Source: Candidatus Saccharimonadota bacterium
GTDB taxonomy: Bacteria; Patescibacteriota; Microgenomatia; UBA1406; GWC2-37-13
Assembly (NCBI GenBank): GCA_016432445.1
Contig: CP066689.1
Coordinates: 60,001-92,000 of the forward strand
Length of the DNA stretch: 32,000 bases
Reading direction: 5' to 3'
Shown here: piece after piece, positions 3,664 to 31,689 of the stretch
How positions within the stretch are numbered: the stretch's first letter is position 1
Layout: each line of letters starts with the position of its first letter
The notes under the pieces: model-generated
What the model was told of the DNA's origin: nothing
What the model saw: only the letters and a program-made list of their open reading frames with translations
Database searches by the model: none
Made by a program: the position numbers and the translations under genes

Positions 3664-3667
3664 TTAA

Positions 3668-3762
3668 TCTAAATGTCAAAATCCAAATTTCAAATGTCAA
3701 ATATTTTTTAGAATTTAAGATTTTGGATTTGACCTGACATTTGAGCTTTGACATTTGGATTT
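3668..3762. repeat. heptamer-repeat hairpin element (AAATGTC / GACATTT word family)
   Basis: Left arm is aaatgtc|aaaatcc|aaatttc|aaatgtc|aaatatt (3671-3705). Inverted right arm is tttggat|ttgacct|gacattt|gagcttt|gacattt|ggattt. Lies between the VirB4-like stop and the PBP2 start. Confidence 0.8.
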
Positions 3763-3771
3763 ATCGTGTGT

Positions 3772-5526
3772 TTATTCTATCAAACTTTTTTCCTCCTCAG
3801 AAGCAATGACTTTAAATCCAACGTGAGACTGACCGGCAAAAAATAATCCTTCTCCAACCCCAGCCGATAACAAGAAATGCTTTTCTCCGCCTGTCAGGTA
3901 AAATGTTTCGGTGATCTTATCAACCGCCGCAGTTGACTGCTTTAGAATAATCTGCAAACTGGAATTAGTGATAATAGCTTTTCCTTCCTGCGTTGACAGA
4001 AAATCTTCAACGTCTTGAGTAATTGTAGTTAACCCCAGCAAATATTTGCGGGCGCGCTTGGCAAAATTAAAAAGATAATTGCCTGAGTCTTTATGTTTGA
4101 TTAAATACCACGCCTCATCAACAATTAAAACTCTTTTTTTCTTTTCACGCCTTACCTTATTCCAGATGTAATCTAAAACAACGTACATGGCCACCGGCCT
4201 TAAGTTTTCCTCCAAATCCCTAATACCAAAAACCGTAAATGGATTTTTAATATCAAAGTTTGATTGCTGATTAAAAATGCCTGAAGCTGAACCTTTAACG
4301 AATTTCTCCAGCCGGTCGCCCAGTTCTTTTGATTCTGGTGTTTCCATCCCCAATAATACTTTATAAAGATCCTCTAGAAGCGGCGGCTGCGTTTTAAAAG
4401 TCTCAGGATCCTGAGTGATGCCTTTTTGGCGGTAGGTCAAGACCAATGCCCGATCAAGAAGAGCATCCTGGGCCGGGACCAAATCACCCATAATTACCCT
4501 CATTAATGAATGCAGATTTAAGATTTTATTCTGCAGTTCATCAGGCTCAGGATCAGCGGTTGCTAAATCAAAAGGATTAATTTTATACTGAGATGCCCCT
4601 GAAAATTCTACAAACTCTCCACCCATTGAACCTGTTAATTTTTTATACTCATTCTCAGGGTCAATGATCATCACATCAGTACCCATCATCAGCAGTCTTG
4701 ACGACTCAAGTTTGACTAAAAAGCTTTTCCCTCCTCCTGATTTTCCTAAAATAACTGAGTTGGCATTCTCAAGAGTAAACCGGTCAAAGATAATAAGTGA
4801 TCCGTCATGCTGATTTAATCCATACATAATTCCTTCGTTTTTTGTAAGAGATGCCGTTGAAAAAGGAAAAGTCGTAGCTAAAGATGTTGTGTCCATATTG
4901 CGCCACACTGAAAGTTTGTCATAAAACATAGGTAAGGTTGATTTAAATCCTTCTTCCATCTGCAAAGTTGCTTGTTTAGCAATAATAAGAAGTGAGGCTA
5001 AACTTGAGTCAATCTGTTTGCTTAACTGATTTAACTCATCAAGACTATCAGCCGGAATTGTGATATAAAGTCCAAACTGAAAAAATCTTTCCGCTCCTTT
5101 GGCAAGTTCAGCCTGCAAGGCTAAAGCATCATCAAGGGCTACCTGTACTGTCGGGTCAACTACCTTCCCCGCCTTCATATCAGTTTCAATAGTCGCTTCC
5201 ATCTCGGCAATCTTGCGTTTCAAATCTTCAAGTACTGTTTTCGATTCGGTTGGATAAATATACATTGAGATATAAAGAGGATGATCAAAAGTAATAAGAG
5301 AATAAAGCCAGTTGGCTGAAACATAACGGGGGTAGCCTACGACATACAAAGTTTTGTAATATTTATCATCAATTTTAAGGTAGTTGAAATCAACTTCAAT
5401 AAAAGAAGGCGCAATAATATCTTTGATACTGACTGATCCTTTAGCCACTACCTCGGCCACGCTTTGAGATCCGCCCGCAACAGCCGAACCATTTGATTTT
5501 GTTTTTGGTTTAAATAAACCTAGCAT
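3772..5526 (-). CDS. VirB4/TrbE-like type IV secretion ATPase
   Basis: Walker A GKSGGGKSF and Walker B VLIVDEAW. N-terminal region is typical of the VirB4 family (YYKTLYVVGYPRYVSANWL). The track start at 5553 is a TTG inside the repeat element; the ATG at 5526 (MLGLFKPK) is preferred. Confidence 0.8.
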   Translation of the reverse strand: MLGLFKPKTKSNGSAVAGGSQSVAEVVAKGSVSIKDIIAPSFIEVDFNYLKIDDKYYKTLYVVGYPRYVSANWLYSLITFDHPLYISMYIYPTESKTVLEDLKRKIAEMEATIETDMKAGKVVDPTVQVALDDALALQAELAKGAERFFQFGLYITIPADSLDELNQLSKQIDSSLASLLIIAKQATLQMEEGFKSTLPMFYDKLSVWRNMDTTSLATTFPFSTASLTKNEGIMYGLNQHDGSLIIFDRFTLENANSVILGKSGGGKSFLVKLESSRLLMMGTDVMIIDPENEYKKLTGSMGGEFVEFSGASQYKINPFDLATADPEPDELQNKILNLHSLMRVIMGDLVPAQDALLDRALVLTYRQKGITQDPETFKTQPPLLEDLYKVLLGMETPESKELGDRLEKFVKGSASGIFNQQSNFDIKNPFTVFGIRDLEENLRPVAMYVVLDYIWNKVRREKKKRVLIVDEAWYLIKHKDSGNYLFNFAKRARKYLLGLTTITQDVEDFLSTQEGKAIITNSSLQIILKQSTAAVDKITETFYLTGGEKHFLLSAGVGEGLFFAGQSHVGFKVIASEEEKSLIE

Positions 5527-5530
5527 AATT

Positions 5531-5654
5531 AAATTTAAAAATCCAAATGTCAAAGCTTAAATGTCAAACCTGCCTGCCGGCAGGCAGGTCAAATCCAAAA
5601 TCTTAAATCCTAGAAAATGTTTGACATTTGAAATTTGGATTTTGACATTTAGAA
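5531..5654. repeat. heptamer-repeat hairpin element with central 22-nt GC palindrome
   Basis: AAATCCA/AAATGTC words, then acctgcctgccggcaggcaggt (5568-5589), then inverted TTTGACA/TTTGGAT words. Its last 22 nt (5633-5654) are identical to 13899-13920. Confidence 0.8.
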
Positions 5655-5656
5655 CT

Positions 5657-6313: not shown

Positions 6314-6319
6314 CTTTTT

Positions 6320-6386
6320 ATGATTTATGATTCACGATTTAAGATTCATGAATATTCTTGAATCCTGAATCATGAATCTTGAATCA
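6320..6386. repeat. heptamer-repeat hairpin element (GATTCA / TGAATC word family)
   Basis: Reads tgattta|tgattca|cgattta|agattca|tgaatat|tcttgaa|tcctgaa|tcatgaa|tcttgaa|tca, a perfect 7-nt phase. The two halves are reverse-complementary. Confidence 0.85.
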
Positions 6387-6394
6387 ATTTTGTT

Positions 6395-7297
6395 TTATAA
6401 CATTTCTTTCGAATAAAACTCAAAAGGATTGGGATTGTTTTCCTCAACCTTCAATTTCATTGTATCAAAAAAGTAACCGCCTTTTGGATCTTTTAGTTCA
6501 AATAAATACTCGCCTTCAGGCAGATTGTTATAGGTTGCAAAAACTCCGTGAGGATTAGTTTTTAATAATCTTAAAGTCTCGTTACTACCACCTTTTACAT
6601 AAATTAAAATACCGGGAAGCGGAATCTTTTTATTGTTTTTAACCAAACCAATAAAGAATGGCTGTTTGGGTTGACTCGAAGATACAGCCGGTACTGAAAG
6701 CGGCGTAGCATTAATAGTAGAGGCCGCCTGAGCCACAACAGGATTATCAGTTCTGGGTTGTGAGTTGTGAGTTGTGGGTTGTGAATTTTGTGTTGACTCA
6801 GAACCCACAACCCTTGACCCAGAACTATTTTGTAATTGATTCGTCGCTGTCTGCAATAATGTCTGCACTTGCTGTTTGTTATCGTTTGATGCTTGCTGGG
6901 GAGTTGAGCTAACAAGATATGCTGCTAGTTTTTCTTTGGACTCAATATGCGATATTATTTTATGAGGGTCTGAAACAAAATATAGATTTTGTAGAAAATA
7001 AAGAGGCTGATTATGTTTGTGATAAACATATTGAGTTGGAGATGTAAGTCTTTTTATAAGATTTTTAATCCAAACATCAAGAGGCCGATCATTTATCGGC
7101 ACCAAAGCTAAAGCTGCACCAAACAGTACAAAAATTACTCCTAAAATGATATTTAAATAAGGTATCGGAAAAATCATCCAGATAATAAAACCCACAGGAC
7201 CAAATACCAAAAAATACAAAAACTGCTTTAAGGTCATAAACCCAATTAGCTTAAACTCAAATGTAGTTATCTGACGAGGAACTGGATGCTGCTCCAT
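6395..7297 (-). CDS. PrgI-family-like membrane protein with C-terminal carboxypeptidase-regulatory-like beta domain
   Basis: The N-terminus MEQHPVPRQITTFEFKLIGFMTLKQF plus two TM helices matches my memory of PrgI-family proteins encoded next to VirB4. The C-terminus (GILIYVKGGSNETLRLLKTNPHGVFATYNNLPEGEYLFEL) looks like a CarboxypepD_reg fold. The start is moved to the ATG at 7297. Confidence 0.6.
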   Translation of the reverse strand: MEQHPVPRQITTFEFKLIGFMTLKQFLYFLVFGPVGFIIWMIFPIPYLNIILGVIFVLFGAALALVPINDRPLDVWIKNLIKRLTSPTQYVYHKHNQPLYFLQNLYFVSDPHKIISHIESKEKLAAYLVSSTPQQASNDNKQQVQTLLQTATNQLQNSSGSRVVGSESTQNSQPTTHNSQPRTDNPVVAQAASTINATPLSVPAVSSSQPKQPFFIGLVKNNKKIPLPGILIYVKGGSNETLRLLKTNPHGVFATYNNLPEGEYLFELKDPKGGYFFDTMKLKVEENNPNPFEFYSKEML

Positions 7298-7328
7298 GTA
7301 TTCAGTATATAATATGTAGCACAATATT

Positions 7329-7412
7329 TGATTTATGATTCAAGATTCAAGATTCACGAATAAAAATTAATAAACAAATAATGAAATTTCATGAATCATG
7401 AATCGTGAATCA
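7329..7412. repeat. heptamer-repeat hairpin element (GATTCA / TGAATC word family)
   Basis: Left arm tgattta|tgattca|agattca|agattca|cgaataa; right arm tcatgaa|tcatgaa|tcgtgaa|tca. The right-arm 24-mer at 7389-7412 recurs exactly at 17041-17064. Confidence 0.85.
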
Positions 7413-7419
7413 AGGCAGA

Positions 7420-11755: not shown

Positions 11756-12133
11756 CTAATCTCTGTTGGATGTTTTATGCATAGTAATCCAGTTTTTAAT
11801 AACAACAATTACTCCATCCATGTCATTTTTAACTTGATCGTTAGTAAAACGTAAAATATTTATTCCCAACTTATAAAGCTGATCTTGTCTCTTCTCATCG
11901 TAATTACCTTTTAACTCATGACTATCTCCATCAATCTCGATGGCTAGTTTTAGTAAATTGTTGTAAAAATCAACAATATAATTTCCTAAAGGTTTCTGCC
12001 GGTTAAAATCGATACCCAAAACCTGTTTATTTTTCAACCTTTTCCATAAAATAATTTCTGCAACTGTACTATTTTTTCTTAAATGAGAAGCAATCTTTTT
12101 TAGTTTTGGATTATAAGGTATTGTATATGACAT
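11756..12133 (-). CDS. DUF559 (Vsr-like restriction-endonuclease-fold) domain protein
   Basis: 125 aa with the pattern LRKNSTVAEIILWKRLKNKQ..G..F.RQKP.G.YIVDFY......AIEIDGDSH......D..R...L...G...LRF.N..V typical of DUF559. Confidence 0.8.
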   Translation of the reverse strand: MSYTIPYNPKLKKIASHLRKNSTVAEIILWKRLKNKQVLGIDFNRQKPLGNYIVDFYNNLLKLAIEIDGDSHELKGNYDEKRQDQLYKLGINILRFTNDQVKNDMDGVIVVIKNWITMHKTSNRD

Positions 12134-13753: not shown

Positions 13754-13840
13754 AAAAATTTATGAAATTATAATGTCACCATTATGCCTAAACATCTCAA
13801 AAAATTCAATAGATTATAAGCCACAAAGTTGAGTAAATAA

Positions 13841-13920
13841 ATTCAAATATCAAATAAATATTTGGATTTTAGATTTTGGATTTGATTTGAAATTTGACAT
13901 TTGGATTTTGACATTTAGAA
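13841..13920. repeat. heptamer-repeat hairpin element (TTGGATT/TGACATT word family)
   Basis: attcaaatatcaaataaata is followed by tttggattttagattttggatttgatttgaaatttgacatttggattttgacatttagaa. The terminal 22-mer is identical to 5633-5654 and overlaps the stop codon of the UbiA-family gene. Confidence 0.75.
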
Positions 13921-14835
13921 GATATAGATAAGTCCTACCATAATCAATCCCCAAAGCAGGATGGTAATAATTAAAGGTTTGTCATTGGTAATAATTTTCT
14001 CCGGCAGTTCTCCTTGTTCTTTTTGATAAAGAAGCTGGGCATAGCGGGCAATCCCATAAACTACTAAAGGAATTGAGATCATCAGCCATTTTCTAGCCTC
14101 AAATCCAGGGAGAATTTTGGAGATCGTATCAGAAAATACAGTAGTAACCTGCGGCGGTTTTTCAAAATAAGTGTAAAAGGAAAATGAAATTATAGTGGCT
14201 GTAGCAAAGGTGTTGGTTAAAAAATCAAGCAAATGCTCTTTATACTCAACTAATGACAATCTTGTTTCTGTCCCCCTCCCCACCAGCTCCGCATGCCTTT
14301 TAACAGTGGCCATGAAAAGCGATACGAAAAAAATGGTAAGCAAAAGCCAGATTGGAATATGATATCCTGAGACAACTTCACCAGCAAAAGTGCGGATCAT
14401 AAAAGAAAATGAGATGGTAAAAATATCTATTATCGGGTGTTTTTTAAGATAAAGAGAATAAAAAAAATGAATCAGAATAAATACGAAAGATAACAGGAAA
14501 AATGAAACGGAAAAAAGAATAGAGACTATTAAAGAAGCAAACGTCAATAGGAAAACTGTGAAAGTCGCCTCAGCAATAGTTACCTCGCCCGAAGCAATCG
14601 GCCGCTGTTTTTTTACCGGATGCTTTTTATCTAACGGATAATCAATAATGTCGTTTAAAACGTAAGAAGCCGAAGATAAAAAACAAAAAACAAAAAACGC
14701 AAAAAGAGATTTTGAAAAAAGATCAACATCAAAAAGTTTTCCTGAAAAAACAATGGCCACAAAAATGACTAAGTTTTTTATCCATTGATTAACCCGAAGC
14801 ATCCGCATTAATACAAAGATTCTTTCTTTTTTCAT
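13915..14835 (-). CDS. UbiA-family prenyltransferase (decaprenyl-phosphate phosphoribosyltransferase-like)
   Basis: Polytopic membrane protein with the NDIIDYPLDKKHP Asp-rich motif and KQRPIASGEV. Confidence 0.75.
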   Translation of the reverse strand: MKKERIFVLMRMLRVNQWIKNLVIFVAIVFSGKLFDVDLFSKSLFAFFVFCFLSSASYVLNDIIDYPLDKKHPVKKQRPIASGEVTIAEATFTVFLLTFASLIVSILFSVSFFLLSFVFILIHFFYSLYLKKHPIIDIFTISFSFMIRTFAGEVVSGYHIPIWLLLTIFFVSLFMATVKRHAELVGRGTETRLSLVEYKEHLLDFLTNTFATATIISFSFYTYFEKPPQVTTVFSDTISKILPGFEARKWLMISIPLVVYGIARYAQLLYQKEQGELPEKIITNDKPLIITILLWGLIMVGLIYIF

Positions 14836-15358: not shown

Positions 15359-15967
15359 ATGAATATTGATTTTAAGAACGTTTCTAAACATTATGCTCCT
15401 CGTACTCATGAAAAAATGCAGGAAGTTTTAATGAATCCTCAAGGAGTTGGACCAGAAATTCATTATTACATGATAAGAGGTGGTAAAAATCAAAAAAACA
15501 TTACTATTTGGGAACCGGGAACAATAAGTGGCGAATATATTAAAACTTACGGACACTATCATTTAGGACAGCTTGATGAAACTTACTGGATCACTTTTGG
15601 ACAAGGAATCGCCGTATTGCAAAAATTAGCTCTTGATGAAAAAGGGGAGATGATCCCTGATGTTGTTGAAGAGTTTAAAGTCATAAAGGTTAAACCTGGA
15701 GATAGTATTTATATGCCACCAGGTTATGGACATCTCTTTGCTAATGTTGGAGAAACATATTTTGTGACAGCTGATAACAGCCCTGTTAATTTCGGGGATG
15801 TTGATCCTTCAGGAATGCCCGGTCATGCCGATTATGAACCTGTAAAAAAAATGCAAGGCTTTGCCTATTACGTGGTTGAACATGAAGGCAAACCAGCTCT
15901 TAAAAAAAATCTAAAATATAAAGAAATTAAAAAGGAAGATCTTGGAGGTTTGTCTGTCATTGTCTGA
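15359..15967 (+). CDS. cupin-type (archaeal-type) glucose-6-phosphate isomerase
   Basis: PGTISGEYIKTYGHYH....DETYW and PGDSIYMPPGYGHLFANVGE align by eye with Pyrococcus cPGI (PGKVGKEFFFTKGHFH...AEVY; PGTVVYVPPYWAHRTVNIGD). Confidence 0.7.
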   Translation: MNIDFKNVSKHYAPRTHEKMQEVLMNPQGVGPEIHYYMIRGGKNQKNITIWEPGTISGEYIKTYGHYHLGQLDETYWITFGQGIAVLQKLALDEKGEMIPDVVEEFKVIKVKPGDSIYMPPGYGHLFANVGETYFVTADNSPVNFGDVDPSGMPGHADYEPVKKMQGFAYYVVEHEGKPALKKNLKYKEIKKEDLGGLSVIV

Positions 15968-15994
15968 GATCTTCGATATTCGATTTTCGATATT
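15968..15994. repeat. heptamer-repeat arm (TTCGAT words), left inverted repeat of the four-helix-bundle cassette
   Basis: cttcgat|attcgat|tttcgat|attagat, starting right after the PGI stop codon. The inverted partner is at 16421-16452. Confidence 0.8.
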
Positions 15995-16361
15995 AGATTT
16001 TAGTTTTAAGATATCTAATAAGTCCACTAATCATCATGCCGATTTTATTAGCTTCATTAAGTAATTCTATAGAAATATGCTCATCAATGTATTTTAAATC
16101 TTTCGCAAGAATTATCTGATACTTTGTTTCTGCTAAAGAACTTTTAGACATGTATAAAAATCGCACAAAATCTTTTTTACTACCTCGTTCGTTTCCTTCT
16201 ACTATATTTGTAGAAATGGAAGCTGACGATCTTCGGATTTGATCCACTAATGAATATTTTTCATTCATTGGAAAATATTTTGTTATTTCATATATTTTTA
16301 ATACTAATTTATGTGAACGATTCCAAACTTCCAATTTTTCAAACTGATTATTAAAATTCAT
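15993..16361 (-). CDS. four-helix-bundle protein (23S rRNA intervening-sequence protein family, TIGR02436-like)
   Basis: 122 aa. LEVWNRSHKLVLKIYEITKYFP..EKYSLVDQIRRSSASISTNIVEG..R.SKKDFVRFLYMSKSSLAETKYQIILAKDLKYI matches the family consensus over its full length. Confidence 0.9.
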   Translation of the reverse strand: MNFNNQFEKLEVWNRSHKLVLKIYEITKYFPMNEKYSLVDQIRRSSASISTNIVEGNERGSKKDFVRFLYMSKSSLAETKYQIILAKDLKYIDEHISIELLNEANKIGMMISGLIRYLKTKI

Positions 16362-16420
16362 AAAATGATCATCTCATATCTAAAAATAATATCAGTCGCT
16401 TATCGTCAACAATATTAAGT

Positions 16421-16452
16421 AAATCGAACGTCGAATATCGAAAATCGATGAT
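16421..16452. repeat. heptamer-repeat arm (ATCGA words), right inverted repeat of the four-helix-bundle cassette
   Basis: aaatcga|acgtcga|atatcga|aaatcga|tgatc. This is the reverse-complement word set of 15968-15994. Confidence 0.8.
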
Positions 16453-16462
16453 CAGGAGCTTT

Positions 16463-17761
16463 TTAGAAGGATCTACTTACTTCTTTTCCTAACTTCACCG
16501 CATAATTTGTTCCCCGGTCATAAGGATAGGTCATGTCGAGATTGGCAATGAAAAAGTTTTTGACGGGAGTTTCAAATGTTGGTTTATTTGCTACAAACTC
16601 TTTATCATAAATAGGTTGTGCCCAAGGAGCTTTGAAAAAAAAGTTCTGAGTTATGCGTTCTGAGTATTGCGGATTTATTTGTTTTAAATAAGGAAGATAA
16701 AATTTAACGGCTTCTTCTCCATCCATTTTTAATCTTTTATCATCTCCATCTAAATAATTGGCCACGTAAAGGATATGTTTATCGTTATAATATTTTTTAT
16801 TCATAAAATTAGTATGTTGAACTAAACCCATGATGGGAATATTTTTATCACAGACATTAAGCCAGTAGGTCTTTTCAAGCAATGGCTTTTCTGACTGCAA
16901 AATAAGAGTTGTTGCATGAAGATATTTTATTTTTTTTAAGTTTGATAAATAATTTTCCGGAAAAATATTTTCTGCTAATTTAACTAAAACCGGCGTCGGC
17001 AAGGTAGAAATTACCGCATCATATTTTTCCTCATGAATCATGAATCGTGAATCATGAATCAATATTTCCCCTATTTGACATCCTTTCTTAATCACTACTC
17101 CCAAATCTTGATTAACCTTTTCCAAATAATTAATAAATGTTTGAAAACCACCTTTAATATAACCTAAATCCTTGGTTCTTTTTTTAATTCTGGCCCAAAA
17201 AAAAGAGGTTAGAATAATTCCCGCGTATTTACCGAACTTTTTCCGAAAGAGTTCCTGCCACAGTACATTCCAAGCTTCATCCCCCATGGTTTTCTTTAGA
17301 AACTCCTCAGCCGTTTGCTTCTCATAAAGATTAAAAAAAGGAGAAAATTTAAGAAAAGCCAAAATAAAAGCCGCTCTTATCTTTGATGGCCAAGAGAGAA
17401 GAGGGAACTTCAAAAAATCTTGCGGAGTATCTAAGGGAAATATGCGGGAATTAGATTTTCGATATTCGATTTTCGAAGATCGACTATCGAACATCGGATA
17501 AAGAGAGGCTGTCTCGGGTGACTCGAAAACGACATCATTAAACCCAACCTCTTTGGCAAAATTCAAGATATCCATATCATTAGAGAAGAGGTGATGGTAA
17601 GTCCTTTCCAAATACCAACTCCATTTTTCATCTTTAAACCCTGAAGCTAATCCTCCTAAGATTTCTTCTTTTTCAAAAAGCGTTACCTTGTGACCTTTTT
17701 TAGCAAGATAGTAAGCGGCCGTTAATCCCGTAAACCCTCCACCCAAAATTGCAATTTGCAT
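16463..17761 (-). CDS. NAD(P)/FAD-dependent oxidoreductase (amine-oxidase / protoporphyrinogen-oxidase-like fold)
   Basis: N-terminal dinucleotide-binding motif IAILGGGFTGLTAAYYLAKKGHKVTLFEKEEILGGLA. Contains two in-frame heptamer-repeat segments (see findings). Confidence 0.75.
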   Translation of the reverse strand: MQIAILGGGFTGLTAAYYLAKKGHKVTLFEKEEILGGLASGFKDEKWSWYLERTYHHLFSNDMDILNFAKEVGFNDVVFESPETASLYPMFDSRSSKIEYRKSNSRIFPLDTPQDFLKFPLLSWPSKIRAAFILAFLKFSPFFNLYEKQTAEEFLKKTMGDEAWNVLWQELFRKKFGKYAGIILTSFFWARIKKRTKDLGYIKGGFQTFINYLEKVNQDLGVVIKKGCQIGEILIHDSRFMIHEEKYDAVISTLPTPVLVKLAENIFPENYLSNLKKIKYLHATTLILQSEKPLLEKTYWLNVCDKNIPIMGLVQHTNFMNKKYYNDKHILYVANYLDGDDKRLKMDGEEAVKFYLPYLKQINPQYSERITQNFFFKAPWAQPIYDKEFVANKPTFETPVKNFFIANLDMTYPYDRGTNYAVKLGKEVSRSF

Positions 17762-18109: not shown

Positions 18110-18131
18110 ACCTGCCTGCCGGCAGGCAGGT
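18110..18131. terminator. 22-nt perfect GC palindrome, candidate bidirectional terminator hairpin
   Basis: acctgcctgccggcaggcaggt lies between convergent gene ends (17787..18080 plus strand, 18157..19149 minus strand). There is no clear U-tract. Confidence 0.4.
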
Positions 18132-20377: not shown

Positions 20378-20465
20378 GATTTATCGATCTTTGATCTGAG
20401 ATCTTAAATTTTGGATATTGAATGAATTATTTTGCTTCTAAGATTAAAGATTTAACATCTAATCA
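20378..20465. repeat. heptamer-repeat hairpin element (GATCT / AGATT word family)
   Basis: gatttat|cgatctt|tgatctg|agatctt|aaatttt|ggatatt|gaatgaa|ttatttt|gcttcta|agattaa|agattta|acatcta. Confidence 0.7.
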
Positions 20466-24034: not shown

Positions 24035-24042
24035 ACTACGAA

Positions 24043-24062
24043 CCTGCCTGCCGGCAGGCAGG
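24043..24062. terminator. 20-nt perfect GC palindrome flanked by CTACGAA heptamers, candidate terminator of the nrdJ-pduO unit
   Basis: cctgcctgccggcaggcagg lies 9 nt after the adenosyltransferase stop. Flanking words are ctacgaa | ccacgaa|ctaccaa|ctacgaa. Confidence 0.45.
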
Positions 24063-24116: not shown

Positions 24117-24138
24117 AAGAAAGCATTTTTAAAAATTA

Positions 24139-24308
24139 GGCTTGGTTTAACCACAATAAGGTTAATTGGGAATACGGTGTGAATCCGTAACTGTGCCGCA
24201 GCGGTAAAAGTTAGTCGCGAGTCGTTAGTCATGAGTCATTAAAAATGACTCTCAAGACTAAAGACTCAAGTCTCAAGACTAAACTTGAGTCCGAAGACCG
24301 ACCAAGCT
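24139..24308 (+). promoter_or_regulatory. cobalamin (B12) riboswitch
   Basis: The core GGUUAAUUGGGAAUACGGUGUGAAUCCGUAACUGUGCCGCAGCGGUAAAAG parallels E. coli btuB GUUAAUAGGGAAUCCAGUGCGAAUCUGGAGCUGACGCGCAGCGGUAAGG. The 3' B12-box GAGUCCGAAGACCGACC fits rAGYCMGgAgaCCkGCc. The P1 halves are ggcttggt / accaagc. Confidence 0.85.
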
Positions 24309-24332
24309 CTCGACCCCGAGCAGGGATTATTT

Positions 24333-25640
24333 ATGTTATCGGCCGAAATCTGTAAGCCTTCATCATCTTTTCTTCCTAGCAGAAATGCTACAGAAAGAAC
24401 AAATACAATCGACGTTCCATTAAAAGAAGAGTCGATTTTTAATTATTACTCAATCACCAACGAAGCCAAATTCCTCAAAGAAAACCCTCAATTGCCTCAC
24501 GAGCAAAAAGAATATTATCTTAAAGAAAACGTTTTAAGATTCTTGGGGGAGTTTGCCGGAAAAGTTCCTTACACTAAAATAACCTACATTCTAAGAGATG
24601 ATGGATTATATTACGGAGATCTAAAAGCCATGGACAATTATCGCCAGACTGCTATAATGCCTGAAGCCACCGATCGGGAAAAAGCCGAAGGGGAAGGATT
24701 TGAAAAAGTTGAGGAAGGATTACTTCAACCGGCAAACACCGCTTATTGGATTTCTCCTCCTAAGATTGCCAATTATGGATTTGTTTTCTACTTCACTAAA
24801 GAACTCCAATACGATAAAAAATTAAAAGGTTACAAGGTTACTGAATATATTTTAAGATATCCTGAAAAATTGGAAGATGTTTCAAAAAGTAACCAAATTG
24901 CTTATGGAATAGAAAGTAATGGAAATAACAAACATTACCGGAAAAACGCCAATGATTTTATCAGAGACCCTTTTTTTGATTTATCCAATCCAAATTCAAA
25001 TCTTAAAAAGATATTAAATCTTGTTGATGTTGATGATGAAAAGATATTTCAATCCCAACAGTTTGAAAAACAGGTTGAAGAAAAACTTTCAGGATTAATT
25101 GATCAATACACCAAAACTATTATGATACTATCAAAATATGAACCTTATGAACCAGAATATAATCAAATGTGTAACCACGCTGAAAGTTTACTAACTACTA
25201 TTTACAACAGTGCACGCGTCATTAAGCATATTGTTGAAGAACCTGAAAATCACAATACTGAGAGTTCTGTTTTTGAAAGAGCCAGCAATAAAGAACTTAT
25301 GGCTTACTTTTCACAAAAAAAAGCCACCGTAACTGGAGGAGGCAGTTGTCCTGTTACAAACAAAAGAAATCAACCTGCCTATTTATCATCTTTTAACGTT
25401 TATGCCCTAATGAATACCGGAAATCCCATTGAAAGTTTTATTCATGATCTTGATGAACTTTTTTCAGATAATAAATTTTTAGAATCTGATAGCGAAAACG
25501 AACACTATGAAGATTATGAATGTCCTCATTGCCACGAAACATTGTCAGGTGAAAAGAAAAATGATCCAAGTTCCTGGAGAAAAACATGCGACCACTGTGG
25601 TGAAGATGTCAGATGTAATAAAGAAACGTTAGCTGCCTAA
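24333..25640 (+). CDS. hypothetical protein with C-terminal CxxC...CxxC zinc ribbon, riboswitch-controlled
   Basis: Long ORF with no TM segment or signal peptide. The C-terminus is YECPHCHETLSGEKKNDPSSWRKTCDHCGEDVRC. The track start (TTG 24285) lies inside the riboswitch, so the in-frame ATG at 24333 is preferred. No family recognised. Confidence 0.6.
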   Translation: MLSAEICKPSSSFLPSRNATERTNTIDVPLKEESIFNYYSITNEAKFLKENPQLPHEQKEYYLKENVLRFLGEFAGKVPYTKITYILRDDGLYYGDLKAMDNYRQTAIMPEATDREKAEGEGFEKVEEGLLQPANTAYWISPPKIANYGFVFYFTKELQYDKKLKGYKVTEYILRYPEKLEDVSKSNQIAYGIESNGNNKHYRKNANDFIRDPFFDLSNPNSNLKKILNLVDVDDEKIFQSQQFEKQVEEKLSGLIDQYTKTIMILSKYEPYEPEYNQMCNHAESLLTTIYNSARVIKHIVEEPENHNTESSVFERASNKELMAYFSQKKATVTGGGSCPVTNKRNQPAYLSSFNVYALMNTGNPIESFIHDLDELFSDNKFLESDSENEHYEDYECPHCHETLSGEKKNDPSSWRKTCDHCGEDVRCNKETLAA

Positions 25641-26538: not shown

Positions 26539-27399
26539 ATGGATAATTATTTCCTTCCTTTGCTTCTGGAAAAGTTTATTCAACACCTAAAAAGCCAAGG
26601 AAAATCTCAATTTACACTAATCGCCTATAAAAAAGATCTTGAGCAATTTATAGGTTTCTTAACCAGTCGTGAAAAAAATGATATACGCGAAGTTAAAAGA
26701 GAAGACATTGATGGCTTTATTAACAAACTTATTTCCGATAACTATACTAAAAAATCTGCCTCCCGAAAACTAAATTCAATAAGAACTTTTTTCAGATATC
26801 TTAAAAACGAAGGAGTAATCGAACAAAACCCCTCACTTGATATCTCTCACCCCAAATATACTCAAACCCCTCCACGAATCTTAAGCAAACTTGAATACCG
26901 AGCCTTACGGGATGTCGCCAAAGAAGACACCAGAACTTATGCTTTAATTGAGGTTCTTCTTCAAACAGGTATTAAAATAGGTGAACTGGCCGGACTTCGG
27001 ATTGATGATATTAAAGATACTAATTTACATATAAAAGCTTACGGCAAAAACAAAGAACGTGATGTTCCTTTGAATAAAGCTGCTAAAAAATCTTTAGAAG
27101 ATTATTTAAAAGCAAGAAATAATGTTGCCGAAGATCACATTTTTGTTACCCGCACCGGACGGCCTTTGTTAATAAGAAACATTAGACAAATTATTGACCG
27201 CTGTTTTAATGAGGTAGGGATAGAAAATGCAACTGTTAATGATCTAAGAAATACTTTTATTGCTCATCAGCTGATGAGCGGCACATCTTTAGAATATATT
27301 GCCAAAGTTGTCGGCCATAAACGATTGTCATCAACCGAAAGATTCCTTGACCTTGTTAAAGAAGAAGCCGAAAAAAAAGAAAAACTCGGCGAACTCTAA
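26539..27399 (+). CDS. tyrosine-recombinase (XerC/XerD)-like protein with divergent catalytic residues
   Basis: SAM-like N-terminal domain (YKKDLEQFIGFL, SIRTFFRYL) and a C-terminal catalytic-domain pattern (ALIEVLLQTGIKIGELAGL, GKNKERDVPL, LRNTFIAHQL, VVGHKRLSSTERF). Confidence 0.7.
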   Translation: MDNYFLPLLLEKFIQHLKSQGKSQFTLIAYKKDLEQFIGFLTSREKNDIREVKREDIDGFINKLISDNYTKKSASRKLNSIRTFFRYLKNEGVIEQNPSLDISHPKYTQTPPRILSKLEYRALRDVAKEDTRTYALIEVLLQTGIKIGELAGLRIDDIKDTNLHIKAYGKNKERDVPLNKAAKKSLEDYLKARNNVAEDHIFVTRTGRPLLIRNIRQIIDRCFNEVGIENATVNDLRNTFIAHQLMSGTSLEYIAKVVGHKRLSSTERFLDLVKEEAEKKEKLGEL

Positions 27400-28625: not shown

Positions 28626-29057
28626 ATGAAACTTAAAATCTATACCGACGGAGGGTCGTTAAATAATCCTGGGGAAGCGGCTATAGCTTACGTTATCTAT
28701 CTCAATGATGAATGTGTTTTAAAATTCTCTAAAAGGATTGGAGTCGCCACTAATAATTTTGCCGAATACACGGCCTTAATTGAAGCTTTAACAGCAGCTA
28801 AAGATTTTATTAAAAAATATCCAATCAAATCAATCAATGTTTTTTCCGACTCTCAACTCATGGTAAGCCAGCTATGCGGCCTTTACAAGATTAAAAACTC
28901 ATCAATAAGAGATCTTATTATGAATATAAGAGTACTTGAAGGAGAGATAAATTTACCAATAGTCTACGCTCACATTCTAAGAGAAAAAAACCAAATAGCA
29001 GATTCACTAGTTAAACTAGCTTTTAAATCCAAATATCAAATTTCAAATGACAAATGA
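28626..29057 (+). CDS. rnhA: ribonuclease HI family protein
   Basis: DEDD-type motifs: IYTDGGS (D), NNFAEYTALIEAL (E), VFSDSQL (D), NQIADSL (D). The last ~11 codons are encoded by the heptamer repeat. Confidence 0.8.
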   Translation: MKLKIYTDGGSLNNPGEAAIAYVIYLNDECVLKFSKRIGVATNNFAEYTALIEALTAAKDFIKKYPIKSINVFSDSQLMVSQLCGLYKIKNSSIRDLIMNIRVLEGEINLPIVYAHILREKNQIADSLVKLAFKSKYQISNDK

Positions 29058-29155
29058 AATCCAAAGTTTAAAATCTAAATTTAAAAATTTTTTTCACTCG
29101 TTATTTGGATTTGGGATTTAATTTGACATTTGTTATTTTGATTTTGACATTTGAG
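29024..29155. repeat. heptamer-repeat hairpin element (AAATCCA/AATGACA vs TTTGACA/TTGGATT words) between convergent rnhA and dnaN
   Basis: aaatcca|aatatca|aatttca|aatgaca|aatgaaa|tccaaag ... ttatttg|gatttgg|gatttaa|tttgaca|tttgtta|ttttgat|tttgaca|tttgag. Confidence 0.75.
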
Positions 29156-29156
29156 T

Positions 29157-30257
29157 TTATTCCTCTTGTATTCTTACTGGCATGACAATGTGAATAAATG
29201 AAGGATTCCCATCTATTTTGAAAACCACTGGAGCATCCGATCTTAAAACCTCAATTTGAAGCAGTTTAGTATCAATGTTATTTAATAAATCCAAAAGGAA
29301 CTTGTAGTTAAAAGCCACTTTCTGCTCTTCACCTTTAATTTGTCCTTCCTGAAAGGTATTGTTATTCTCACTGTTTTCCTTCTTTGGTCTCATAAATACA
29401 CCTTCTTTCTTAAACTCGCAAACTACAATATTGGAGAAGTCGCGAGCAAAAATTGAGATTAACTTAATGTTTTTCAAAAACTCATCTTTTTCCAAAATTA
29501 TTTTCGTTTTGCGGTCTGCCGGAATCACTCTTTCATAAGGGGGAAATTCACCTTCAATAAGACGCGAGTAAAACCTCGTGTCTCCAACCCTGAAGAAAAT
29601 TATCTTTTCTTCCGGAGAGTAAGAAAAAAATACTTCTTTTTCATCTTTAACAAAATGTAGGAGCTCCGAAAGAAAATCACCGGGAATAATCATTGAAGGA
29701 ATGTCTATCTGCTTTTTAGTTTTAATCAAAGACAATCTAAAACCGTCAGTGGCTACCATAATTAAATCATCTTCTGAAACTACAAAATTAACTCCGGTTA
29801 ATGATGGTCTAGTTTCATCTGGTGAAGCAGCAAATAAAATAAGGGGTAAATTTTTTTTAAAAAAGTTGACATCTAGTGTTTGCTCTTTTCCTTTTATCTC
29901 AGGAGGTAAAGGAAACTCCGTGGAAACAATTAAAGGAAAACTTCCTTTTGTTTTATTTTGACTGATAGTTACTTGATTTTCTTTAATGTCAACCTCTATT
30001 TTGCCAGGATCCAAAAACTGTAAAAACTCAGTTGTTTTTTTTGGCTCAATGATAATTCGAAAGTTCTCTTCTAAGGGAACAGTTAAAGTTGTATGAATGT
30101 AGGAAGTTAAGTTCGTTGAGTAAAAATGAAGCTTGTTTTTTTCTCCTTTAATTAAGATTCCCTGCAAAGCTGTTAAAGAAGTTAATCTTGACGATGTAAA
30201 TCTTGAGGCAAGACTTAGTTTTTCCAGTAAAAGATCTTTCGCTACGTTTATTTTCAT
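29157..30257 (-). CDS. dnaN: DNA polymerase III beta sliding clamp
   Basis: 366 aa directly downstream of dnaA. Three-domain clamp pattern: N-terminal MKINVAKDLLLEKLSLASRF, ATDGFRLS, FNYKFLLD, and a C-terminal MPVR. Confidence 0.9.
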   Translation of the reverse strand: MKINVAKDLLLEKLSLASRFTSSRLTSLTALQGILIKGEKNKLHFYSTNLTSYIHTTLTVPLEENFRIIIEPKKTTEFLQFLDPGKIEVDIKENQVTISQNKTKGSFPLIVSTEFPLPPEIKGKEQTLDVNFFKKNLPLILFAASPDETRPSLTGVNFVVSEDDLIMVATDGFRLSLIKTKKQIDIPSMIIPGDFLSELLHFVKDEKEVFFSYSPEEKIIFFRVGDTRFYSRLIEGEFPPYERVIPADRKTKIILEKDEFLKNIKLISIFARDFSNIVVCEFKKEGVFMRPKKENSENNNTFQEGQIKGEEQKVAFNYKFLLDLLNNIDTKLLQIEVLRSDAPVVFKIDGNPSFIHIVMPVRIQEE

Positions 30258-30363
30258 ATTTAAAATAGTAGTAGTAGACAGTGGGTATAAGTGTATAAAA
30301 TCAAAAATGGATTTTCAAGATATAACAAAATTGAAAAAAAACAATGTTTACGGTTAGTGGATA

Positions 30364-31689
30364 TCATGTTGATGAAGTAAGAGTTTGGGTTATACGGTCA
30401 ACCTCTTGCTTAAAAACAGGGTTTTTAATCATCAGAGCGGTGATTTTTTCAACTCCATGCATAATAGTTGTATGATCCTTTCTTTTTAAAATATCAGCAA
30501 CATTATCAAACTTCATCTTAAGTTCAATACGCAAAAGATACATAATTATTTGCCGAGTTAAAACTATTTCTTCTTGTCGGCTTGAGCTTTTTATGTGAGT
30601 CTGTCTAATATTATAAAAAGAACAGACAATCCTAATGACGTCGTTGTGAGATACTTTTTTAAGAACATTTCTTGTTCTTTCCTGTAGGTACATCTCGACA
30701 GCTTCAAGATCTATTTTTTCTTTGATTCCTAAAATTTTAGTATATACTGAAAGCAAAGCTCCCTCAAGAGCACGGCTGTCTTCAATTTCTTGAGCAATGA
30801 TCTTGGCCGCTTCCATATCAATCTCAATGTTTTTTTCTTTAGCTTTAATAAGCAGGATGGCTGTCCTTAATTCAAAATCTGGAGGTTGAAGATCAACTAT
30901 TAAACCACCGGAAAAACGTGATCTTAGGCGATCCTCGAGGTTTTTAATCTCACGAGGCGGCTTATCTGAGGTTAGGATTATTTGCCCTCCTGCTGAGGCA
31001 ACTGTATTGAACGTATGGAAAAATTCTTCCTGGACAGTTTGTTTCCCGGCAATAAACTGAATATCATCAACAATAATCATTTTTAAACTTCTATATTTTT
31101 TTCTAAACTTCGGTTGTGACCTTTCCCTTATTGACTCAATAAGCTCATTAGTAAATTGATCTCCTGGACAAAAAAATATTTTTTTGCTTTGATCTTTTTC
31201 CAATACGGTTCTTCCCACAGCTTGAGCCAAATGAGTTTTACCAACACCGACGCCTCCATATAAAAACAAAGGATTGTAAGCTGTTCCTAAGTTGCGGCTC
31301 ACAGCCTGAGCAGCAGCATAAGCAACCTGGTTGGTTGATGAGACAGCAAAGTTATCAAAGCGGTATTTAGCATGAAGCCCTGATTTTAAATAAATATCTT
31401 CCATTGACGGTTCAAAACGCAGTAAAGGCGGCTCTTTTTTTCTTTTTTTTTCTTCCAAGATAAACTCGATGGAGGTTTTTTTATTAAGGTAGGATAAAAG
31501 AAGATGTTCTATTATTGAAATTTTTTTTTCAAGATAAATTTTTACACCTTGGTTCTCACAACGGGCAATAATTTTGCTGTCGCTTATCTTAAGAGGCTTA
31601 AGTTCTTTTAAGATGGAGTGAATAATGGGATTCTTTTGGTCAGTTTTTTCTACATGCTGTACAAATTCATTCCAAAAAGATTGTAACAT
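30364..31689 (-). CDS. dnaA: chromosomal replication initiator DnaA
   Basis: F.NF.V...N..A..A, Walker A GGVGVGKTHL, Walker B IIVDDIQF, and the domain IV DNA-binding region (RQIIMYLLR......F..VA..L.RKDHTTIMHGVEKI). Confidence 0.96.
   Translation of the reverse strand: MLQSFWNEFVQHVEKTDQKNPIIHSILKELKPLKISDSKIIARCENQGVKIYLEKKISIIEHLLLSYLNKKTSIEFILEEKKRKKEPPLLRFEPSMEDIYLKSGLHAKYRFDNFAVSSTNQVAYAAAQAVSRNLGTAYNPLFLYGGVGVGKTHLAQAVGRTVLEKDQSKKIFFCPGDQFTNELIESIRERSQPKFRKKYRSLKMIIVDDIQFIAGKQTVQEEFFHTFNTVASAGGQIILTSDKPPREIKNLEDRLRSRFSGGLIVDLQPPDFELRTAILLIKAKEKNIEIDMEAAKIIAQEIEDSRALEGALLSVYTKILGIKEKIDLEAVEMYLQERTRNVLKKVSHNDVIRIVCSFYNIRQTHIKSSSRQEEIVLTRQIIMYLLRIELKMKFDNVADILKRKDHTTIMHGVEKITALMIKNPVFKQEVDRITQTLTSST

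Follow-up and report, generated by a model that had tools for sequence, protein, structure and literature searches.

In-frame heptanucleotide arrays in an oxidoreductase gene of a Candidatus Roizmanbacteria genome: a palindromic insertion and a periodic native beta-hairpin

Two arrays of 7-nt units were found in frame within a gene for a flavin adenine dinucleotide (FAD)-dependent oxidoreductase in a 32,000-nt stretch (contig CP066689.1, positions 60,001 to 92,000; hereafter the window) of a Candidatus Roizmanbacteria genome, which belongs to the candidate phyla radiation (CPR). The first of these, site 1, is a true 45-nt in-frame insertion in a disordered surface loop, a length-variable hot spot of the protein. 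The second, site 2, is not an insertion. In the reading that we consider probable (about 0.6), site 1 is a copied-in miniature of a cassette that encodes a PF05635 protein, site 2 is a native hairpin that was made periodic, and both belong to one lineage-wide class of heptanucleotide arrays. The features concerned are the following (TRF, Tandem Repeats Finder; IVS, intervening sequence).

16463..17761, minus strand: FAD-dependent oxidoreductase gene, 432 aa; Pfam PF01593, E=1e-30; amine-oxidase/phytoene desaturase/protoporphyrinogen oxidase fold
17453..17497, minus strand: site 1, imperfect palindrome made up of TCGA-core heptamers; 45 nt, in frame; peptide PMFDSRSSKIEYRKS at residues 89-103
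17031..17061, minus strand: site 2, (GATTCAY)x4.4 on the sense strand (TRF), encoding IHDSRFMIHE and sharing an exact 24-mer with 7389-7412
15968..16453, minus strand: PF05635 (23S rRNA IVS protein / four-helix-bundle) cassette, gene at 15993..16361, 122 aa; Pfam PF05635, E=7e-40

The oxidoreductase open reading frame (ORF) is intact. Its product retained every family-invariant residue, was modelled by AlphaFold2 (AF2) with a predicted local distance difference test score (pLDDT) of 89, and gave 5mog and 2ivd as best folds in the PDB (template modelling score 0.78; phytoene desaturase and protoporphyrinogen oxidase). A protein with 100% identity was present among the NCBI proteins of metagenome-assembled genomes (MAGs) on 15 contigs from separate assemblies, the longest being 1.1 Mb. 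A preliminary description of the window had called the gene an intact FAD oxidoreductase and had translated both segments without stops or frameshift; the translations were correct, and the PF01593 match, the conserved residues and the model also bore out the gene's intactness against the possibility of a pseudogene.

The insertion at site 1 and the neighbouring cassette

Insertion at site 1 was established by codon-level comparison. The window reads ...ctttat, the 45 nt and then aattcccgcatatttccc, and the insert-free orthologue L124 reads ...ctgatt followed directly by aattcccgcatatttccc; the flanks of the insert are identical to L124. The centre of the palindrome, TTCGAA (17472-17477), is also the centre of the 45-nt insert. 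TRF reported a direct array at 17450-17476 (period 7, 3.9 copies, 80%). The 19-mer TTCGATATTCGATTTTCGA, which had been reported to recur in the inverted repeat of the cassette, was found in exact copies at 15972-15990 and 17458-17476, and its imperfect reverse complement follows at 17473-17491, so that a whole hairpin, and not a lone arm, is present here.

The encoded peptide, PMFDSRSSKIEYRKS, was found in no other of 120 homologues. Across these homologues the spacing at this place ranges from 5 to 49 aa. Arrays make the site longer, the median being 22 aa where one is present and 14 aa where it is not. Residues 95-102, between the strands at 84-89 and 105-108, form the sole stretch of the AF2 model with a pLDDT below 50. 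The insert would survive because its length is a multiple of three, it contains no stop codon and the loop is permissive. On the sense strand, the RNA of site 1 folds into a hairpin of -18.1 kcal/mol (z=-4.4), and 0/200 shuffles were as good; on the opposite strand, where a G.U pair turns into C.A, the z score is -2.0.

The likeness between site 1 and the cassette arms, already pointed out in the preliminary description, was confirmed and extended to both ends of the element. The arms (~15968-16008 and 16420-16453; inverted repeat I13) consist of inverted TCGA heptamers that agree over 34 nt at 79%. The first 24 nt of the insert match 15967-15990, the outer terminus of the left arm, at 23/24 positions, and this match begins precisely at the insert boundary. 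The complement of the left half of the insert matches 16424-16446 in the right arm at 21/23 positions. Local-alignment scores to the two termini were 43 and 36, compared with scores of at most 23 elsewhere in the 32 kb. By inspection, GAT[N]TTCGA is common to all four ends of insert and cassette, and the termini of the insert are inverted; the insert thus resembles both cassette termini without the interior. Since each end of the insert has its counterpart in a terminus of the PF05635 cassette, which lies 1 kb downstream, sequence comparison favours the reading of site 1 as an ORF-less miniature of this cassette family that was copied into a permissive loop.

Pure local slippage in 7-nt steps would make copying between sites unnecessary: both arrays would have grown in place, and their likeness to intergenic arrays would be low-complexity convergence. 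We regard this as possible but rather unlikely. At site 1 it is at odds with the palindromic build of the insert, as the site-1 arrays examined in other orthologues are direct, and with the flanks, in which no native seed for the unit of the insert is visible. It also leaves aside the cassette-terminus match that starts at the insert boundary and the placement of all three TCGA-family arrays of the window within 1.5 kb. The evidence in favour of slippage comes from the orthologues and is given below.

Site 2 and the recurrence of arrays in orthologous genes

The array at site 2 spans 17031-17061 (period 7, 4.4 copies, 91%; TRF). The preliminary description had placed it at 17041-17071, which both TRF and a search with the shared 24-mer showed to be 10 nt too high. 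This 24-mer, TCATGAATCATGAATCGTGAATCA, occurs exactly twice in the window, at 17031-17054 and, as had been stated, at 7389-7412; with at most 3 mismatches, 6 matches were observed and none were expected from shuffles. The array also matches the complement of 6321-6351 at 28/31 positions.

Exact identity had further been taken as a sign of recent origin, which was not supported. Arrays of the same heptamer family need agree only at one or two variable positions of the unit, so that the exactness of the 24-mer is less telling than had been implied; by a rough estimate, the chance of such identity given two same-family arrays is p ~0.03-0.1. When representative genomes were scanned with the degenerate 23-mer TCRTGAATCRTGAATCRTGAATC, the matches listed included more than 120 loci. 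These come from Acidobacteriota, Chloroflexota, Bacteroidota, Pseudomonadota, the CPR and other groups, and many of them are inverted-arm hairpins. Because identical 23-mers occur across unrelated phyla, exact identity is weak evidence of recency. Taken as a whole, moreover, the site-1 insert is only 62-77% similar to the cassette arms, and these are its best partners in the 45 kb of readable source-genome sequence (the 32-kb window and a 13-kb extension).

At site 2 the region between conserved anchors measures 27 aa with or without an array. The segment (LIHDSRFMIHE, residues 234-244) forms ordered beta strands of a beta-hairpin in the AF2 model, with pLDDT above 90. Arrays of other units occupy the same codons in the orthologues L123 (GGTTCAY), L121 (AATTCNN) and L122 (AAATTCK), where they encode VHGSRFTVHG, IHNSKFTILN and IRNSKFEILN, respectively. 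When the sequences were read by eye, the sole C variant of the site-2 array (GATTCAC on the sense strand) was found to mark the one boundary between units at which a T would have produced TGA in frame, from which it follows that the array was filtered by selection on the protein. The RNA of site 2 does not fold significantly (z=-1.4). The proposal that both segments are insertions tolerated as surface loops therefore stands for site 1, with its flanks matching L124 and its stretch of low pLDDT, and fails for site 2, with its constant length, the arrays in L121-L123 and its ordered hairpin.

In a neighbour-joining tree of 84 orthologues, built with the hot spots masked, L122 and L123 are sisters; L134 of the same clade and L128, the closest relative of the window gene, both lack a site-2 array.

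The wider gene family was surveyed with the DNA of 87 orthologous loci, from which coding sequences (CDS) could be extracted in 83 cases; with the window gene, this gave 84 CDS. They contain 78 period-7 arrays, compared with 0-20 at other periods. The arrays fall into hot spots at residues 87-109 (17 arrays; site 1), 230-246 (5), 338-351 (5; hot spot 2b) and 359-376 (51; hot spot 3). Only at the first do they lengthen the protein, and the length at sites 2, 2b and 3 is constant. In the window gene, hot spot 3 is represented by a remnant:

16643..16671, minus strand: hot spot 3, residues ~359-376; decayed period-14 remnant, 2.1 copies (TRF), PQYSERITQN

Gain and loss could be followed in pairs of orthologues with ~95% nucleotide identity, in which a 30-55-nt site-1 array is present in one member and missing in the other. 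The array unit occurs once in the array-free partner, as AATTACT in L173 versus L199 and as AAAACTC in L174 versus L165; in L127 the site-1 unit corresponds to native N-Y-R codons. These pairs indicate that arrays are commonly born in place from native heptamers and turn over fast. They argue for slippage, together with the recurrence of hot spots in 55/84 orthologues and the identical 23-mers of unrelated phyla. Against it, slippage alters length and sites 2, 2b and 3 keep theirs; length-neutral arrays would need more than plain slippage.

L196 and L204 are 98.5% identical elsewhere and wholly different over ~160 nt spanning hot spots 2b and 3. Cassette exchange at hot spot 3 was considered for this pair and rejected in favour of a recombination mosaic between strains; the L196 version of the stretch matches L188, L158 and L159.

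A phase-variable contingency locus, in which changes in 7-nt copy number toggle the oxidoreductase frame, is highly improbable. Heptamer tracts act in this way elsewhere, for example in the Haemophilus hmw genes (PMC8262952), and a change of one unit would shift the frame here. The tracts, however, consist of only ~4 imperfect units, no variation was seen on the 15 contigs of the source genome, and arrays lie at the same place in many orthologues with every frame open. Given the identical protein on 15 contigs and the full-length intact ORF, phase variation and the pseudogene reading were both rejected.

Hairpin elements of the window and PF05635 loci elsewhere

Period 7 is the sole enriched short period of the window, with 33 positions scoring at least 18/21 and none for periods 5, 6, 8 and 9. 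In a window that is 87% coding, 18 arrays were found: 12 intergenic, 4 fully intragenic and 2 across the 3' ends of genes. Three intergenic hairpins and the second copy of one of them were recorded.

7325..7419, no strand assigned: intergenic hairpin with GATTCAN arms; right arm 7389-7412 is the exact 24-mer; -27.4 / -24.8 kcal/mol, z=-5.6 / -5.2
6314..6394, no strand assigned: paralogous GATTCAN hairpin on the other side of a PrgI-like gene; z=-6.2 / -5.0
3664..3771, no strand assigned: intergenic hairpin of the AAATGTC/AAATCCA family; near-identical inverted copy at 5530-5656
5530..5656, no strand assigned: second copy of the AAATGTC/AAATCCA hairpin (repeats I1, I12, D3), with the 20-nt GC palindrome CCTGCCTGCCGGCAGGCAGG nested inside

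A copying process acts on hairpin elements in this genome. Positions 3668-3736 and 5585-5653 agree over 69 nt at 96% in inverted orientation, including the non-repeat loop (I1; I12 gives 28 nt at 96%). The hairpin at 6314-6394 is 91% (D6) and 79% (D7) like that at 7325-7419, and 90% like the site-2 array (I9). It is on the 69-nt copies, on the GATTCAN hairpins that are 79-91% alike and on the match of the insert ends to the cassette termini that this conclusion rests. An active copying mechanism rather than local slippage had been proposed before; the 69-nt copies speak for it, and the growth of site-1 arrays from native heptamers at ~95% identity speaks against it as a general rule. The 69-nt copies flank a VirB4/TraG-like ATPase gene (3772..5553), and more diverged relatives of the segment lie at 13839-13916 and 29024-29154.

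The intergenic hairpins fold about equally on both strands; a preference for the sense strand was seen at site 1 alone. This bears on a selected RNA function, with the arrays serving as cis-acting mRNA signals (an RNase III site, a platform for PF05635 or for a cold-shock/S1-type protein with a 7-nt footprint, or a translation pause), which we consider unlikely. The strand preference of site 1 agrees with it, as does the periodicity at hot spot 3 in 51/84 orthologues despite differing units. In Coxiella, RNase III cleaves the inverted-repeat stem of an IVS at the first tandem heptamer (PMC4990558), and each molecule of CspB binds a single heptamer (reviewed in PMC4679880). Against such a function, the site-1 element is present only in this genome among ~200 orthologues, unit sequences are not conserved across orthologues, site 2 lacks a fold and the intergenic hairpins lack a strand preference. 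Terminators were also considered and rejected: no heptamer hairpin carries a T-tail, and terminator-like sites are no commoner than in shuffles.

At 15962-16012 the left cassette arm overlaps with the ends of the two convergent genes. The stop codon of the GPI gene is at 15965-15967, and the array encodes the last six codons (YLKTKI) of the PF05635 gene. No PF05635 gene was found between the oxidoreductase and GPI/PGI genes of the syntenic relatives L121-L124 and L127, nor in 547 kb of sequence around the orthologous genes in relatives. The oxidoreductase therefore does not have the cassette as a fixed neighbour.

As a rule, inverted heptamer arrays stand on either side of PF05635 genes, both in various phyla and on viral contigs. 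Among the 120 loci chosen for heptamer arrays, all three detected PF05635 genes (3/3) are bracketed in this way, and of three homologues picked by protein two are clearly bracketed and one weakly. A larger set of 43 PF05635 loci on viral contigs was chosen solely by protein similarity. A period-7 array lies within 170 nt of the gene at 29/43 of these loci, compared with 1/86 control stretches, which are mostly coding sequence. Complementary flanks were found at 32/43 loci but at 3/129 when flanks were paired across loci (74% versus 2%). Array density near the gene is 1.39/kb and elsewhere in the 10-kb context 0.164/kb, a difference of ~8-fold. ORF-less arrays elsewhere on the contig have the unit of the cassette in 20/40 cases, compared with 4.1% across loci. 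The genes concerned (L087, L093, L102, L210, L212 and L213-L298) come from several phyla and from viral contigs. As units vary from locus to locus, it is the hairpin that is conserved and not its sequence. PDB relatives of PF05635 are 2gsc (Xanthomonas) and 2rld, with five chains per entry each. Xanthomonas is a genus rich in heptamer repeats.

Contig L208 of the Logan collection (6051 nt, same organism, short-read assembly) stops just before the hairpin at ~3664, and contigs with PF05635 homologues are mostly 0.5-8 kb long. Together, these observations suggest that assemblies break at heptamer hairpins and that MAGs under-represent them. That repeats break assemblies here is also the one point in favour of regarding the in-gene arrays as an assembly artefact or the gene as a pseudogene, which has next to no probability: the protein is full-length with all family-invariant residues, its fold is confidently predicted, the same sequence stands on 15 contigs including the 1.1-Mb one, and an array is adjusted to avoid a stop codon.

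Heptamer arrays and related repeats were seen at several other places. An in-frame array, (GTTGTGR)x6.7, at 6744-6791 in the PrgI-like gene (6395..7324, minus strand) encodes TQNSQPTTHNSQPRTDN; (AAAAAAC)x3 lies at 14678-14698 within the UbiA gene; and the C-terminal end of the RNase H gene is made up of the array at 29028-29060. A degenerate hairpin with GATC-core heptamers (GATCTTT GATCTGA GATCTTA ... TCTAAGA TTAAAGA) is present at 20386-20460 and has the 11-mer TCTGAGATCTT in common with the left boundary of the cassette. The perfect 20-nt GC-rich palindrome CCTGCCTGCCGGCAGGCAGG occurs in 3 copies (~5568-5587, ~18110-18129 and ~24042-24061), two of them directly after gene ends and one within a heptamer hairpin, and resembles the very small dispersed repeats of cyanobacteria. 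A cobalamin riboswitch (RF00174, 64 bits) was found at 24126-24320 on the plus strand, upstream of the ORF at 24285..25640. Its variable peripheral stem is made of inverted heptamer arrays at 24212-24241 and 24248-24284 (GAGTCNN / AAGACTC). Hairpins of this kind are thus found in a permissive helix of a structured RNA as well. An Rfam scan of the window yielded this riboswitch only and no rRNA.

The dnaN and dnaA genes at the right end of the window (29157-31689; extension L209) show that the region adjoins a probable replication origin. In the 13 kb read outside the window (10 kb past dnaA and 3 kb past the left edge), no period-7 arrays were found, nor any 12-mer in common with either in-gene array; the arrays are thus clustered and not evenly distributed. 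Other genes recorded were a DUF559 (Vsr-like endonuclease) gene at 11756-12133 (minus strand) between the RNase Y and RecX genes, and a ribonucleotide reductase gene with a LAGLIDADG intein in L122 (1613-5056), which the copy in the window does not have. Transposase genes are absent from the window, its only integrase being of the XerC/D type (26539..27399).

Origin of the arrays, known systems and implications

For site 1, template switching promoted by the hairpin, or ectopic repair between arrays close to each other, would be the favoured route, with copying probably from the cassette to the gene. At site 2, neighbouring units were probably homogenised by strands that misalign in a 7-nt register and then realign, or by short-patch conversion, after which selection would purge frameshifts and stop codons. 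The 24-nt identity between site 2 and the intergenic arm would reflect that both belong to a single heptamer family of this genome, possibly by way of conversion, with transfer from the gene to the spacer equally possible.

Several observations weigh against a copied-in miniature at site 1 and a shared array class. No near-identical full-length copy of the 45-nt insert was found in the 45 kb, and no target-site duplication was seen at 17452/17498. The right half of the insert is ~83% identical to the complement of its own left half and ~83% to the right arm of the cassette, so one arm plus a strand switch could have made the insert. Other orthologues build their site-1 arrays in place, with no import. 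The closest sequenced orthologue, at ~73% protein identity, is too distant to date the events or give their order. The tree does not settle shared ancestry versus convergence of the site-2 arrays, the carriers of which are not demonstrably monophyletic, and the figure of 20/40 for shared units may be inflated by genome-specific base composition.

The Rickettsia palindromic elements (RPEs), reportedly described by Ogata et al. in 2000, are the nearest in-gene counterpart in form. Like site 1, RPEs are short hairpin-forming repeats that lie in frame in protein genes as tolerated surface insertions; they also occur in intergenic DNA and RNA genes and have no own transposase known (reviewed in PMC10969869). 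Site 1 has the palindromic hairpin, the absence from orthologues, the reading frame and the position at the protein surface, and site 2 has neither a hairpin fold nor absence from orthologues. Unlike RPEs, which measure 100-150 bp and are multi-copy with high identity, site 1 consists of 45 nt of 7-nt units, resembles the arms of a protein-coding cassette and has no near-identical partner in the 45 kb.

Heptanucleotide long simple sequence repeats (LSSR), which include the cyanobacterial short tandemly repeated repetitive (STRR) sequences (Mazel 1990; Mrazek 2007), are treated in PMC4679880 and PMC4692102; an origin by slippage is proposed there (Mrazek 2007), which supports the slippage alternative. 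As described there, they are tandem 7-nt units in 3-6 copies, strongly over-represented compared with other periods and sometimes in inverted pairs. The arrays of the window share the head-to-tail 7-nt units in at least 3 copies and the over-representation of period 7. LSSR/STRR are mostly intergenic, whereas the arrays studied here also lie in frame at conserved hot spots of a gene, mostly without changing its length, and are tied to PF05635 cassettes; we did not find either feature described. In copy-number behaviour, gain and loss at site 1 at ~95% identity stand beside constant length at sites 2, 2b and 3. Heptanucleotide elements have also been reported in Geobacter metallireducens, both within and between genes (GGGACCG x4 in 49 copies and MTYCTGA x5 hairpins; PMC2700814). 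They are GC-rich and were interpreted as regulatory sites, with no structural mapping, orthologue comparison or cassette link in that report (PMC2700814).

The cassette has the layout of the 23S IVS that carry an S23p/PF05635 ORF (Leptospira, Coxiella; PMC4990558), in which terminal inverted repeats form a long stem whose loop contains the ORF; the in-gene element has a stem and no ORF. The location differs, since the cassette is placed between the GPI gene and the oxidoreductase gene and not in helix 25 or 45 of 23S rRNA. Unlike a 23S IVS, the in-gene element sits in mRNA, and the message would be destroyed if the element were cut out and the ends not religated. The stem of the Coxiella 23S IVS contains tandem GACAGAT heptamers of strain-variable copy number, at which RNase III cuts (PMC4990558). 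It is the only published parallel that we found for the association of PF05635 with heptamer arms.

REPIN-RAYT and insertion sequence (IS)-miniature inverted-repeat transposable element (MITE) pairs (PMC3116915) likewise combine a coding master copy with ORF-less hairpin satellites that have the same repeats, as the 20/40 versus 4% unit sharing recalls. In contrast to those systems, the PF05635 protein, a small four-helix bundle, is not known to act as a nuclease or transposase, target-site duplications were not seen, and the repeats are tandem arrays instead of one fixed sequence. At site 1, of inverted termini, target-site duplication and cognate transposase, only the inverted termini were found in the window.

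More speculatively, PF05635 proteins and heptamer-array hairpins might form one widespread two-part element of bacteria and phages, with a master cassette and ORF-less satellites of the same unit. We put this forward as a tentative idea that is more easily wrong than right. The master cassette would carry the PF05635 ORF in the loop of a stem made of inverted 7-nt arrays. Its satellites would colonise any permissive site, be it a helix of rRNA, as in the classical IVS, a spacer between genes, the stem of a riboswitch or a loop in a protein, and the palindrome of 45 nt at site 1 would count among them. If true, this would link the origin of rRNA intervening sequences with the excess of heptanucleotide repeats in bacteria, and would assign to PF05635 a role that can be tested, namely the binding of its own heptamer arms.

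If the link between PF05635 and the arrays holds genome-wide, the question of why heptanucleotides are the commonest long simple repeats in bacteria would become testable, as would the nature and spread of IVS elements and of the S23p protein. For the oxidoreductase family itself, the arrays show that 7-nt repeats are not limited to spacers and recur in a few permissive loops of a conserved enzyme. Because they return to the same loops, variation in loop length and sequence in CPR proteins has a cause at the DNA level and not at the protein level, which bears on the annotation, alignment and interpretation of 'insertions' in CPR proteomes.

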